From a virus (Duplodnaviria > Heunggongvirae > Uroviricota > Caudoviricetes), in the IMG/VR virus record IMGVR_UViG_2778261184_000010: DNA of 11,965 nucleotides; one strand, written 5' to 3'. A program made the position numbers and the translations under genes. This document shows positions 1,891-5,810 of the stretch, in pieces. The notes below the pieces were generated by a model. The model was not told the DNA's origin and did no database searches. It was given only the letters and a program-made list of their open reading frames with translations. Within the stretch, counting starts at the first letter, position 1; each line of letters begins with the position of its first letter.

Positions 1891-2475
1891 CTATTCGATA
1901 ATGGGTACTGTTGGCCATTCAATATCCGGTGCAGTTGTTGTATTAACACGGTTCAGCAACACCCGATATTTTTTCCAGGCTTCCAGCAATGAGGTTTCTT
2001 CCTCCGTTGCGATCTCCAGATCTACAGCATCCTGAAGTGGCGCTATATGCTCACTGGCTACCTGCATCAGGCTGTTTTTTGTTTCTTCCGCCTCCCGGAT
2101 CCGGAACAGTTTTTCTGCTTCCGTATCCTTCACCCAGGCTGTACCGTTCCACTTCTGATATTCCCCTTCCGGCGATAACCAGGTGACATTTTCCGGTAAC
2201 GAGCCAAGTTCAGAAATAAATAACGCGTCGCCGGAAGCCACGTCATAGACGGTTTTTCCCCGATGATCTTCAACGAGATGCCACGATGCCTCATCACTGT
2301 TGAAAACAGCCACAAAGCCAGCCGGAATATCTGGTGGTGCAATATCGGTACTGTTTGCTGGCAGACCTGTATGAGGCGGAATATATGCGTCACCTTCACC
2401 AATAAATTCATTAGTTCCGGCCAGCAGATTATAAATTTTTATGGTCCGTGCTTGTTCACTCATTCTGAATGCCAT
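1891..2475 (-). CDS. tfa: Tail fiber assembly protein (lambda Tfa family)
   Basis: 194-aa [54 protein letters not shown]...; same length as lambda Tfa and near-identical to it as far as I recall. Its ATG overlaps the stf stop (TAATG), suggesting translational coupling. Confidence 0.93.
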
Positions 2476-5400
2476 TATGCAAGCCTCACAATATAGTTAA
2501 ATGCGATGTTTTTGACGGTGTTTTCCGCGTTACCCGCAGCGTTAACGGTGATGGTGTGTCCATGTGAGCCAATCGCAACGGAGTGCGTATGAGCACCAAT
2601 ACCGACAGTATGTGCATGTGCGCCTGCGCTTGCAGCAGTGCCGGACAGCGAGTGGGTATGAGCACCATCTGATGATGTCTTCCCTGCATTACGAGTCTGG
2701 CCACTACCGCTTGTTGTGCTCATAATCCCCGCGCTTGGATTTGAAATCGCGGTATAACCATTAGGGAAAATGCTCGTGTTCGTGCCACCAAATGCACCGG
2801 AACTCTTGTGTTGGTGCGCGCCGGCACTATTTGCGGTCCCGCTAATACTATGGGTATGCGCCCCGGTGTTATTCGTGGATTTAGTGCCGTAATCAAACGA
2901 CGATGTGGTTTTCGTCCCCAAATCAGTACTGGATGCGCTGGCGCTGTGGGTATGCGATTTTATGCCGTCCTGTTCCTGAGACAATACGGCACGACCACTG
3001 GCGGGCTTGCCCTTAATCGTCCAGCCACGCATATCAGGGATCACGCCTGACGGATAAGCGGCTGCAAGTTTCGGGTAGGCAGATTTGTCAAAAGTCTGCC
3101 CCTGCATCAGGGCATAACCAGACGGAACGGTATCTGATGGCCACGGGATTGGTGCGCCGACTGGGTAGCTTTCTGGTGGAAGATTTTTCGAGGTATAAAC
3201 TTCTGCCCAGTCTTCCTCAAAACCATAACCGTCTCTTGAAGAACGGTAGAACAGACCACCATTTCTGTAATGCGCCTTCATCTGCAAGGTCCGGCAACTT
3301 CCGACTCCGGTATAGAAGTTAACCAGAATATAGCTGTCGCCAGAGCGAGTGACATTGTAAGCGCCTGATTCGGCATTCCAGGGAACGCCCCCATCCGCAT
3401 CGGCATACGTATCCGTTGCTCTTCTGGCAAAAGCAGCAACATGCGCAGCGGTTAAAGTGATATCAGTAGAACCATCAAACGAAACACCAGATATTTTTAT
3501 TGCTGTCTGAAGTTTCGTAGCTGTATCAGAATTTCCCTTAATCCCCTTAGGAGAATTAAGTGGTGTATTGATCGTCACTTCACCTGTTGCGTTATTTACT
3601 GCAAATGGTCGAAGACCGTTCCAGCCACCGTACTGGTCGCCTTTATCAGTCATGAGCAAGTAAGTATTTGCTCCATCATTTCGCCATATGACACCGTAAT
3701 CACCTGCAATCATTCTTAACGCGTTCTGACTACGGACAATAACTTCATCATTAGCGTAAATCTTATTTCCGCTAATGTCTGACTTACTCAAAACAGGATA
3801 CGAACTATAAAATCCATTACCTTGTTTAAAATCTAAAATTAAATTTACCGCAACTGATTCAGAATAAGGATCAGTTGCGCCAAATTTATAAGTCGTTTCA
3901 GCAACAATATAATCAGAAGCAGGTGCAGTAACAGAGAGACCTTCTTCTAAAAAGACCTCTACGGGAAATGCCCCACCTTCTATATAGAATACTCTGTCTA
4001 CGGTATCGCCTTTATTACTCATCAGAATGGAATGAATAGCGCGTTCCGATGATGAATAAGCCCAGAACATACCACAGGCATAGCTACCCCGGTCCGTCCA
4101 GCCGCCTGAGCAAACAAAACCATTAAACTCACAATTATTCATTCTGTGATTAGCTGAGCGACTTGGCGTTGAAATGACAACGCGGGATGCCCGATGGCTG
4201 TCATTCCTTTTTATCACTAACGGATAATATTTACCTTCCTGGACACCCGCCGGGGCATTTACCACAACGTATCGCATCCCCTTTTTCTGATCCACTTCAC
4301 CTTTGCTGTAAACATTAATGTTACTCAGGAAGCGATCCTTGTCGGGAATATCAGCACCGTTCTGGTCTTTCTGCAGACGTTTCTCTGCATTGTCATAGGC
4401 TGCTTTTACTGCCTTTGGCGTTGCCGCCAGCGTTTCAGACGTACTGTTGGTCGCACTGCTGAGCTGTACTATCCCCTTTTTCGTCGTACTTGCATCCTCA
4501 AGCGCCACGGCGGATGCAATGTCCTCTGCCCGTTTAGCTGCTGTCTCGGCGCGCGTTGCCGCGGATTCCGCCGTACTTTTGCTCTGAGCTGCCGCCGTCG
4601 CACTGCCAGCAGCCTCTGTCGCCTTCGTGGATGCCGTCGTGGCGCTGCTCTTCGCTGCTGACGCTTGTCTGGTCGCCTCATCTTTTGAAGCAGACGCCGA
4701 TGATGCCGATGACGCCGCCGAACTGGCTGACGATGCGGCAGCCGTTTTTGAGGATTCTGCGCCGGTTTCCGACGCTTTCGCGTTCGTTTCGGATGTCTTC
4801 GCTGCGGAAGCTGACCTCGCTGCTGCCGTGGCCTGTTCAGTGGCTTCGCCAGCCTTCGTTGTGGCTGTTGAAGCGGATGATGCGGCGCTTTCTGCCGACT
4901 TTCCGGCAGCGGTGGCACTGGCTGAGGCCTGCCCGGCATTTGTTGACGCGGCGCTGGCAGATGAGGCAGCCGCTGTTTTTGAGTCTGCTGCTGCGGAGGC
5001 ACTCTGTGCTGCTGCCGTTGCCGAGGAAGCTGCGCTACTGGCGCTCGAGGATGCGTTCGTTTCTGATGATTTTGCCGCCTCTTTTGAAGCCGACGCATCC
5101 CGGGCTGAGGTGGCAGCTTCTGACGCTTTCGTAGTCGCGGTGGATGCAGAAGTGGCTGCTGATTGTTGTGACGCTGCAGCATTCGTTTCTGACGTTTTCG
5201 CGGCACTGGCACTGGTAGCTGCCGCGCTTTTTGAGGACTCTGCAGCGGCAGCACTTTTTTCCGCTTCAGTGGCCTTTGTTGATGCCGTTCCTGCGCTGGA
5301 AGACGCTGACTGAGCCGACGACGCGGCCTGTCCGGCTGACGTGCTGGCTGCGCGTGCTGAGCCTGCAGCATCAGTCGCATGGGTTGCCGCCTCACGGGCT

Positions 5401-5810
5401 GATGTGCTGGCATCGCTGGCTGACTTCTTCGCGGCTGCCGTGTTCTGTGCCACCGCGGACGCGTTACGCGCCACCTCTTCCACCATCAGTTCAAAACGGC
5501 GCAGTGCCTCAGGACGGGCATCATCCTCCGTCATGGCACCGAGAAAATCATTCAGCGTACCGGGTCGGGAATCTTCATACACGGTGATGGTCCCGGCATG
5601 TGACGGCGGGAATCCCTCCACCAACAGAATAACGCTGTACTGCCCGTACTCAACGTCCATGCTGTAACGCCCGGCTTCATCCGGATTTTCTGAGGCCAGC
5701 GTGTTCACCACCACCGTGGTGCTGTTACGTTTTGCTTTCAGCTGGATTGTGCAGTTCTGTACCGGTTTTCCTGTGCCGTCTTTCAGTACACCTGAAATCT
5801 TTACTGCCAT
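2475..5810 (-). CDS. stf: Side tail fiber protein (lambda Stf / Rac StfR family), long form
   Basis: The track ORF runs to 5816 using GTG; the likely true start is ATG at 5808-5810 ([26 protein letters not shown]...) preceded by GGGGTG. The N-terminus and the C-terminus (...[29 protein letters not shown], with repeated GAHTHS / GAHAHT His motifs) look like lambda Stf as I recall it. The middle holds a long A/S/T-rich low-complexity region and a large globular insert. Confidence 0.9.
4490..5460 (-). repeat. Internally repetitive A/S/T/E/K-rich low-complexity coding region within stf
   Basis: Recurring peptide motifs ([44 protein letters not shown]) and matching imperfect nucleotide repeats. 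This explains the long spurious ORFs in other frames and on the opposite strand. Confidence 0.6.

Follow-up and report, generated by a model that had tools for sequence, protein, structure and literature searches.

The window, the whole 11,965-nt stretch of DNA that was analysed, contains a K-I-J-lom-stf-tfa gene order with 99.9% identity to a prophage of H10407 on the bio side of att-lambda (Table 1). The stf gene starts with an ATG at 5810 and ends with a stop codon at 2475-2477 on the minus strand. The opposite reading of 2475-5810 was rejected because the plus-strand translation is stop-ridden throughout, which places stf on the minus strand. A GTG is present two codons 5' of the stf ATG, at 5816. 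The gene lies 3' of J and lom and is directly followed by tfa; the layout in lambda and Rac is alike. The terminator-like hairpin between lom and stf is followed by GGGGTGA and then by the stf ATG. The tfa start overlaps the stf stop (TAATG, as read from the sequence), and the Tfa protein is 93-100% identical to lambda Tfa across most of its length. The identical 1111-aa protein was found on 12 public contigs, including a 170-kb contig in which it lies inside an otherwise intact prophage tail region.

Table 1. Features of the side tail fibre locus (positions in the window; aa, residues of Stf).
Feature	Position	Strand	Evidence or remark
tfa, tail fibre assembly chaperone, 194 aa	1891..2475	minus	Pfam Caudo_TAP E 1.2e-43; PHROG 105 'tail fiber assembly'
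stf, StfR-type side tail fibre CDS, 1111 aa	2475..5810	minus	ORF list, translation, StfR alignment, PHROG tail-fibre families
T4 gp37-type collar-needle-head, predicted receptor-binding tip, aa 880-1111	2478..3173	minus	PDB 2xgf, Pfam Collar
Variable head cassette, presumed receptor contact, non-StfR allele, aa 991-1050	2661..2840	minus	Identity drop, pS
Mu S'-like domain, conserved with StfR, aa 791-885	3156..3440	minus	8ju3 323-415
Central cassette, diverged allele of the StfR middle region, aa 492-776	3483..4337	minus	Beta knob (aa ~505-680) and gp34-type trimerisation domain
Conserved adaptor/hinge motif (...NGADIPDK), upstream border of the central cassette, aa 445-500	4311..4478	minus	Mu S match
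Ala-rich coiled coil, 48 unbroken heptads, proximal rod, aa 102-437	4500..5507	minus	Heptad statistics, Ur-lambda equivalence
63-bp deletion junction, retained direct repeat ACGGCAGCAGCA (TAAA, aa 265-268)	5007..5018	minus	BLAST and protein alignment to H10407
N-terminal collar domain, predicted tail anchor, aa 1-94	5529..5810	minus	Pfam PF08400, PDB 9e7m
Terminator-like hairpin and T-run, lom/stf gap	5827..5848	minus	Scan: 8-bp stem, 7 G-C pairs, tail TTTTTGTGGG
lom	5875-6474	minus	
J	6545-10042	minus	

A lambda Stf-like N-terminus had been proposed from the sequence alone, and profile searches agreed. Pfam phage_tail_N (PF08400) matched aa 1-134 with an E-value of 1.5e-71 and 239 bits, the cut-off being 26.6, and all 94 positions of the 94-residue 'Tail fiber protein' chain in PDB 9e7m/9mgh aligned to aa 1-94 (E 1.6e-51). 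We take this chain to be the N-terminal domain of lambda Stf. Homology to residues 1-91 of lambda Stf, the attachment domain, was thus found in the window fibre. These residues make up the dodecameric collar that sits where gpV and gpM meet in Ur-lambda (PMC12617516).

The size of the protein is that of an StfR-type fibre, as the sequence-only reading had noted (1111 aa, compared with 1120 aa for StfR). Its description as unusually long stands against lambda Stf only: among 65 complete fibres with the same N-terminus in IMG/VR the median length is 1055 aa and 25 are at least 1111 aa long, and fibres of similar size are found in the isolated phages Turner, mEp332, ev099, Kati, 2H10, and 9g. A separate protein-database search with aa 1-491 gave a best 120 matches that were all shorter than 860 aa and mostly partial; these served for counts of rod length and not as a census of full-length fibres.

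Coiled-coil rod and three-heptad deletion

The tract rich in alanine, serine, and threonine that had been noticed in the sequence does exist: between aa 102 and aa 465 the composition is 36% Ala, 23% Ser, and 12% Thr. Its autocorrelation peaks solely at multiples of 7 (z 7-10), and its Fourier spectrum has a peak at 3.5 residues with a power of 113, compared with 52 for the 99th percentile of shuffled sequences. Alanine occupies two heptad core positions in 35/52 and 45/52 cases. The 48 heptads run in a single register, for which a trimer is predicted. In Ur-lambda, the proximal coiled coil spans residues 102-393 (PMC12617516); the rod at aa 102-437 is its counterpart. The lambda rod has 36 heptads, the window allele 48, and StfR 51, so that the tract is indeed enlarged relative to lambda, by 12 heptads.

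The tract had also been described as a DNA repeat region prone to length change by slipped recombination. Tandem Repeats Finder, run on the gene, detected no tandem array in the tract, its sole match being a 9-bp unit repeated 2.8 times, and we therefore dropped the tandem-repeat reading. Internal DNA repeats of the tract are only 60-76% identical, with no high-identity head-to-tail repeats of the kind expected in a slippage-prone contingency tract, and its length is mostly constant across relatives: 74 of 77 loci from IMG/VR had the same length, as had 90 of the 97 sequences that could be measured among the best 120 protein matches. What remains of the earlier proposal is one in-frame length change. 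Compared with ETEC H10407, StfR, and lambda, the window allele lacks 63 bp (21 aa, exactly three heptads). In H10407 two copies of a 12-nt repeat, ACGGCGGCAGCA and ACGGCAGCAGCA, lie 63 bp apart and match at 11/12 positions. A deletion of 63 bp between these 12-bp direct repeats has shortened the rod by exactly three heptads. Four of the eight distinct tract-length differences are whole heptads (-7, -21, and -28 aa in close relatives; -105 aa in lambda). The idea that all length variants are multiples of seven was rejected, as differences of -3, +4, +9, and -29 residues also occur, and a strict rule of heptad quantisation is not claimed. The low-complexity tract of StfR-type fibres can be described as a strict single-register heptad coiled coil whose length is conserved among relatives with the same N-terminus.

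Central region, tip, and probable cassette exchange

The fibre aligns over its full length and colinearly with StfR of the Rac prophage in K-12 (b1372, NP_415890.2, 1120 aa). The global alignment contains three notable gaps (21, 3, and 12 aa); every 50-aa segment is at least 50% identical, and identity per segment is 92-100% except at the 21-aa gap and in two cassettes. This full-length colinearity makes the window fibre ordinary, and the novelty that the sequence-only reading had attached to a mosaic design is not upheld.

The adaptor motif, at the upstream border of the first of the two cassettes, matches residues 109-173 of the Mu tail fibre S (5yvq/8ju3). The nucleotide sequence is the same as that of stfR (100%) until about aa 470; by aa 500, identity has fallen to about 50%. 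The central cassette is roughly 55-60% identical to StfR, within a range of 50-70%, and its flanks are at 96-100%. Pfam Gp34_trimer (PF21446) matched aa 634-737 with an E-value of 3.5e-30, residues 1034-1119 of T4 gp34 matched the trimerisation segment (E ~2e-18), as did Mu S 268-334, and the motif GDYG..RNDG.NTY..T..GD..GG.NGLRP is present in the window fibre. A profile comparison of the aligned central region with T4 gp34 residues 801-1289 recovered the known trimerisation motif alone (prob 57%); the alignment was ragged. The first ~170 residues of an AlphaFold2 (AF2) model of the central region had a pLDDT of 75-95; the model represents a monomer of the expected intertwined trimer and is of low confidence past ~170 residues (mean pLDDT 64). 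Its best Foldseek matches were the C-terminal region of gp34 and Mu S. No catalytic or lectin family was matched by the central segment in searches that included Pfam and Foldseek, and its beta domain (aa ~505-633) had no sequence-detectable counterpart in Mu S/S' or the T4 gp34 C-terminal region.

The segment does contain cysteines, as had been noted (Cys 560, 567, 579, and 839). Its description as foreign was not borne out: it is the standard middle region of StfR in a different allele, one also carried by the phages Turner (94-100%) and PhiR30_1, and its best structural matches are the known fibre parts named above. Being colinear and homologous with the StfR region, it is an allele and not an insert. 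This allele was detected in 157 of 5426 E. coli genomes, and further alleles of the region, at 43-74% identity, occur in E. coli and E. albertii prophages. Homologues of the beta domain lie internally in fibres with unrelated N-terminal anchors and tips, the latter either gp37-type or Peptidase_S74-type.

The histidine-rich tip was correctly recognised from the sequence. GAHTHS, GAHQHK, GAHAHT, and GSHGHT are all present, among a total of seven HxH motifs starting at 953, 985, 999, 1051, 1065, 1074, and 1083. PDB 2xgf, the T4 gp37 tip, matched aa 880-1111 with an E-value of 1.7e-83 and an identical C-terminal motif; Pfam Collar was found at aa 885-932 (E 7.4e-12), and a Phage_fiber match fell under its cut-off. 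The region thus combines the collar, the HxH needle (for which iron binding is presumed), and the conserved C-terminus of a gp37-type tip. The second cassette, the head, has ~40-60% nucleotide identity to StfR, a pS of 0.81, and a 12-aa indel, and it aligns with the divergent part of the gp37 tip (PMC9659904). This head allele is unlike the heads of T4, lambda, and StfR. It is common to the phages ev099 and mEp332, and was detected in 994 of the 5426 E. coli genomes; among these are K-12 strains, which have it in a prophage fibre gene at ~1.63 Mb. A literature search on the receptors of Turner, mEp332, ev099, and PhiR30_1 gave nothing usable. Judging by T4 gp37 and lambda Stf, the likeliest receptor is a porin of the outer membrane (e.g., OmpC), the LPS core, or both; the receptor of the Gifsy-1 Stf is the LPS core (PMC12312913).

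Synonymous divergence from StfR is 0.77 (pS) in the central cassette and 0.81 in the head, compared with 0.06-0.15 in the surrounding blocks and 0.24 in a 21-codon block at aa 471-491. Both cassettes have sharp borders and saturated pS. At the level of sequence the two divergent blocks show the classic pattern of tail-fibre cassette exchange, and Turner pairs the central allele of the window with an StfR head. The stf gene is best explained as a recombinant of common alleles and not a new design: relative to StfR, only aa 492-776 and aa 991-1050 are occupied by other alleles, of ancient divergence, and each of the two occurs separately in cultured lambdoid phages. The earlier term mosaic holds for these two allelic cassettes, but not as a foreign insert in lambda Stf. 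The gene is intact but ordinary, is made of known interchangeable modules, and represents no new kind of fibre. Taken together, we assign a probability of about 90% to the reading that 2475-5810 is the side tail fibre gene of a lambda-like E. coli prophage, of StfR architecture and recombined from common alleles, with its function deduced from homology.

Alternative readings and proposed fibre

According to one alternative, a lambda Stf gained a foreign central insert, the beta domain of which provides a second binding site with new receptor or glycan specificity. The divergence of the central cassette from StfR and its absence from lambda Stf would fit such a gain, as would a beta domain that is predicted with confidence and for which no solved homologue was found, the circulation of diverged alleles in E. 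coli and E. albertii, and the observation that the Stf of other lambda-like phages can recognise LPS sugars (PMC12312913). However, the segment is colinear with its StfR counterpart, an identical allele is present in Turner, and no catalytic or lectin family was matched; pN/pS is ~0.36 with pS saturated, so recent diversifying selection is not indicated. The position of its homologues, internal between unrelated anchors and distal tips, is better explained by a structural shaft module, and we regard the gain of a foreign binding domain as improbable. A related proposal, that the polymorphic beta domain (aa ~505-680) is a second independent site (e.g., for LPS/O-antigen sugars), with the length of the rod tuning the reach of this site and of the tip, is likewise improbable. 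If it were true, StfR-type fibres would be dual-specificity adhesins with a reach set in 1-nm steps through the surface polysaccharide. The beta domain at aa ~505-633 is a widespread fibre module.

Two further alternatives concern the assembly and the fate of the prophage. The 63-bp shortening could be an artefact of short-read assembly and not a real allele: the deletion junction had no single-piece match in the 40 best-ranked complete E. coli genomes, and the listed carriers, which come from draft assemblies at NCBI or from Logan assemblies of sequencing runs, all belong to one near-identical lineage. Against this, the same junction was independently assembled in at least five different samples, including the 170-kb contig; the deletion is in frame and removes exactly three heptads; and the flanking repeat is merely 12 nt (11/12 matching). 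No exact repeats of 14 nt or more were found in the longer H10407 stf, so that k-mer collapse is not expected, and assembly collapse was rejected as an unlikely source. An artefact is therefore very unlikely. The odds are about even, by our estimate, that in this genome stf is inert cargo of a decaying prophage, does not work as a fibre, and is retained only as a substrate with which incoming lambdoid phages can recombine. IS1 ends flank the contig at both sides, one of them cutting gene L and leaving ~70 nt of it; because of this cut, the fibre is probably not assembled on the virion in this strain. The inert-cargo reading is also favoured by the recombination of lambda with stf/tfa of two defective prophages, Rac and Qin (PMC3945230). 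On the other hand, the 1111-codon stf and tfa are both intact, and the same sequence (1 mismatch in 11 kb) is found in an uninterrupted H-M-L-K-I-J-lom-stf-tfa order in other assemblies. The question bears on activity in one strain and not on the identity of the protein.

For the preferred reading, a recombinant StfR-type side tail fibre, the anatomy can be proposed from homology to solved and tested relatives. Three chains would form one fibre, with the N-domains (aa 1-94) building a collar round the tail just above the tip. The 48-heptad coil would form a proximal rod of ~50 nm (at 1.5 A per residue), leading through the adaptor (aa 445-500) into a beta-rich knob and shaft (aa ~505-885) that would consist of the beta domain, the gp34-type domain, and the Mu S'-like domain. 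Distally, aa 880-1111 would provide the gp37-type collar, an iron-stapled needle with the seven HxH motifs, and the small variable head, which may make reversible first contact with the cell surface. Tfa would act as chaperone while the tip folds. As in Ur-lambda, the fibre may speed adsorption before J engages its own receptor.

Comparison with known fibre systems

The gene is one more combination of alleles among the side tail fibres of lambdoid phages, a well-studied family that recombines readily, and the value of the analysis lies mainly in correct annotation. The cassette borders (~aa 490-500, 776-790, 985-990, and 1050) are natural places at which to join parts in engineered fibres like those of lambda-based delivery vectors.

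StfR shares with the window fibre the N-domain, coiled coil, adaptor, knob, Mu S'-like domain, gp37-like tip, and Tfa. It differs in the central cassette (50-70% identity), in a rod that is three heptads (21 aa) longer, and in a different head allele over aa 991-1050, with a 12-aa indel. Rac has a pin invertase gene 3' of the fibre locus, whereas the window prophage lacks pin and has dgcX instead. The Stf of Ur-lambda (orf-401 plus orf-314, ~774 aa) has in common the N-terminal collar domain, heptad coil, a 14-residue motif, gp37-type tip, Tfa, and the place after J/lom. Its rod is 12 heptads shorter (a tract of 251 aa, compared with 335 aa in the window), and its middle section is shorter and different, without the beta knob, gp34-type, and Mu S'-like modules; in BLASTP, lambda Stf matched only aa 1-247 and 881-1111. 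Ur-lambda carries four trimeric Stf fibres that bind OmpC and make adsorption faster (PMC12617516), and the anatomy and OmpC binding of the fibre have been published (PMC12617516; PMC11338833).

Related fibres are found in the isolated lambdoid phages Turner and PhiR30_1. The Turner fibre (PP925837, XNS39479.1, 1119 aa) has the same architecture and, over aa 500-800, the central allele at 94-100%; it differs in its StfR-type head (30% identity at aa 1001-1050) and its full-length rod. PhiR30_1 has the same architecture and central allele (95.5% over aa 444-1019), in a gene annotated as three CDSs.

Several modules of the fibre have relatives in T4 and Mu. The tip of T4 gp37 (residues 811-1026, 2XGF) and that of the window fibre have the collar, the HxH needle, and the C-terminal motif in common; the head loops differ, being longer in the window fibre (aa ~1003-1050), and the rest of gp37 gave two weak local matches at Stf aa ~680-760 (i-E 2.7e-4 and 0.078). 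The chaperone is a lambda-type Tfa in the window and gp38 in T4 (PMC9659904). The trimerisation segment corresponds to residues 1034-1119 in the C-terminal region of T4 gp34 (4UXE, 5NXF). Mu S/S' (5YVQ, 8JU3) has counterparts of the adaptor (S 109-173), the trimerisation segment (S 268-334), and the S'-like domain (8ju3 323-415); Mu S has a receptor-binding domain of its own at the end, where the window fibre has a gp37-type tip.

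Locus and state of the prophage

The side tail fibre gene, stf, lies on the minus strand with its ATG at 5810, a stop at 2475-2477 and a product of 1111 aa (ORF list and translation); a GTG occurs two codons 5' of the ATG. Coding of 2475-5810 on the plus strand was ruled out, its translation being stop-ridden. The window spans contig NLVY01000090.1 (assembly GCA_002511845.1) in full, and positions 441-11492 are 99.9% identical to the bioA-adjacent prophage of the ETEC strain H10407. Based on its position and identity to the H10407 locus, the cyclase gene is identified as dgcX. 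In H10407 and O104:H4 strains, this highly expressed cyclase is reported to be carried as a passenger by lambdoid prophages residing at attB (PMC4287979). A strong terminator-like hairpin (5827-5848, minus strand; 8-bp stem, 7 G-C pairs, T-run) is located between lom and stf, directly 5' of the stf ribosome-binding site, and would uncouple stf from lom expression unless transcription is antiterminated.

Genes of the window and modules of the central segment of the stf product (aa, product numbering)
Feature	Position	Strand	Remark
K	10672-11415	minus	
I		minus	between K and J
J	6545-10042	minus	
lom	5875-6474	minus	
tfa	1891-2475	minus	Tfa chaperone, 194 aa; ATG overlaps stf stop
MASE4-GGDEF diguanylate cyclase gene	486-1817	plus	beyond tfa, at prophage end
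InsA ORF	110-385	minus	IS1 end
InsA ORF	11548-11823	plus	IS1 end
Adaptor motif	aa 445-522		shared with Mu S residues 109-173
T4 gp34 / Mu S trimerisation segment	aa ~680-775		solved-structure sequence match
Mu S'-like domain	aa 791-885		8ju3 residues 322-415

Both contig ends (1-440 and 11493-11965) are IS1 left ends, mutually inverted and 94.8% identical. One cuts tail gene L, of which only about 70 nt are left; the other is positioned 45 bp 5' of the start codon of the cyclase gene. Neither IS1 end was found in H10407 or in the near-identical contigs L003 and L004. Either two insertions or a rearrangement mediated by IS1 could account for the two ends. The prophage in the source strain is probably defective, with the fibre gene serving mainly as a recombination reservoir.

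Heptad tract and the 63-bp deletion

What the sequence-only reading had observed was confirmed, while its interpretation is partly supported. The N-terminus is lambda Stf-like (Pfam phage_tail_N, E 1.5e-71; the 94-residue chain named 'Tail fiber protein' in PDB 9e7m, in our reading the N-domain of lambda Stf, E 1.6e-51), all four of the named His-rich tip motifs are present among seven HxH motifs in total, the tract is rich in Ala (36%), Ser (23%) and Thr (12%), and the Cys-containing segment was recovered, with Cys at 560, 567, 579 and 839. Contrary to what had been claimed, the fibre is not unusually long: among 65 complete IMG/VR fibres with an N-terminus 99-100% identical to that of the stf product (652-1176 aa, median 1055 aa), 25 have at least 1111 aa, and fibres of similar size occur in the isolated phages Turner, mEp332, ev099, Kati, 2H10 and 9g.

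The tract is a strict heptad repeat at the protein level. Autocorrelation peaks were detected solely at lags 7, 14, ... 77 (z 7-10), a period of 3.5 residues dominates the hydropathy spectrum (power 113 versus a shuffle 99th percentile of 52), Ala occupies the two core positions in 35/52 and 45/52 heptads, and 48 heptads follow one another without a change of register across aa 102-437. A DNA tandem repeat was rejected: TRF gave nothing relevant, no exact repeat of at least 14 nt is present in H10407 stf, and identity between internal DNA repeats amounts to only 60-76%, most listed spacings being multiples of 21 nt. Long ORFs in other frames or on the opposite strand within the tract (4469-5413, minus; 4556-5134 and 4627-5313, plus) are most likely by-products of periodic GCN-rich codons; a comparable 'orf206b' is annotated opposite orf-401 in the lambda record.

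Measured from EEVARN to GIVQLS, the tract comprises 335 aa in stf, 356 in H10407 and in StfR, the side tail fibre of the K-12 Rac prophage, and 251 in lambda; relative to 356 aa, stf is shorter by 21 aa and lambda by 105 aa, each an integral number of heptads. There is no hypervariability: the 356-aa form was found in 74 of the 77 IMG/VR loci and, among the matches listed, in 90 of 97 measurable proteins, with rare variants of -3, +4, +9, -7, -28 and -29 aa.

H10407, StfR and lambda retain 63 bp (21 aa) that are absent from stf. The segment is flanked in H10407 by ACGGCGGCAGCA and ACGGCAGCAGCA, which are spaced 63 bp apart; of these repeats the window keeps a single copy, at 5007-5018. No assembler uses a k-mer nearly as short as this repeat, which makes an assembly artefact unlikely. 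An identical 1111-aa protein is encoded on 12 public contigs, including one of 170 kb with an uninterrupted tail gene region; none of the four others compared departs from the window by more than a single mismatch and a single gap over shared sequence. Among the 40 best-ranked complete E. coli genomes, no single-piece match to the junction was found. We take the deletion as real, recent and belonging to one lineage close to H10407. The suggestion that the tract is a slippage site gains this one in-frame event, but the tract holds no DNA tandem array and rarely varies in length.

Central segment and proposed function

Pfam Gp34_trimer was detected at aa 634-737 (E 3.5e-30). Judged by the sequence matches to solved structures, the predicted beta domain at aa ~505-633 therefore has no demonstrated solved homologue; in comparison with T4 gp34 (phmmer, hhalign) the trimerisation motif was the sole match. 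The domain is common all the same, as an exhaustive search yielded 126 clusters at 50% identity. Among the matches the domain is internal in complete proteins, and in six checked by Pfam (1121-1810 aa) the N-termini include P2-type or lambda-type and the ends gp37-type or Peptidase_S74-type. This internal position with varied N-termini and ends is easier to reconcile with a shaft module than with a receptor-binding site.

By analogy with homologues, the stf N-domains would join the collar at the gpV-gpM junction, and the 48-heptad rod and knob/shaft would project a gp37-type needle, whose variable head may contact the receptor reversibly; Tfa would chaperone the tip. OmpC is the receptor of lambda Stf and T4 gp37 on K-12 (PMC12617516, PMC11338833, PMC9659904), and that of Gifsy-1 Stf is the LPS core (PMC12312913).

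Comparison with StfR and related fibres

The central segment had been taken for a foreign insert, with the proviso that the protein would be ordinary if it proved colinear, end to end, with a StfR-type fibre. StfR (1120 aa) aligns colinearly over the full length, and by that measure the fibre is therefore ordinary. Per 50-aa window the two are 92-100% identical, with three exceptions: a gap of 21 aa following aa 264, aa ~492-776 (identity 50-70%) and aa ~991-1050 (about 50%, with a 12-aa indel). By Nei-Gojobori counts, the synonymous difference (pS) versus stfR is 0.77 at aa 492-776 (central cassette) and 0.81 at aa 991-1050 (head cassette), compared with 0.06-0.15 in the long flanking blocks and 0.24 in the 21-codon block at aa 471-491. 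At each cassette border, nucleotide identity to stfR, 100% on one side, is down to about 50% some 30 codons further on. Saturated pS confined to the cassettes, together with sharp borders, indicates that both are old alleles joined by recombination. To this extent the proposed mosaicism holds, but the architecture remains that of StfR.

Of 5426 complete E. coli genomes, 157 carry the central allele; it also occurs in PhiR30_1 and in phage Turner (94-100%), which has the StfR head. The homologous stf of the isolated phage PhiR30_1 (PV340558, 1501-4894) is annotated as three separate CDSs and may not be intact in the sequence as deposited, recalling the frameshifted stf of laboratory lambda. An IS1A is located inside the closest full-length relatives of stf (97.7-97.8% identity) in two complete genomes (NZ_OY754416.1, NZ_OY754389.1). 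Several NCBI partial Stf fragments (matches P0012, P0020, P0130, P0135 and P0228) are named 'short-chain fatty acid transporter, partial', which looks like an annotation error spread among tail-fibre fragments.

The head allele is present in phages ev099 and mEp332 and in 994 of the 5426 genomes; K-12 strains are among them and have it at about 1.63 Mb, presumably the Qin prophage region. That lambda, T4, P2, Mu and P1 exchange tail-fibre segments horizontally has been recognised since 1989-1994. Recombination of lambda with the Rac and Qin stf/tfa regions has been observed in the laboratory (PMC3945230). The stf described here is already known, in kind and in sequence.
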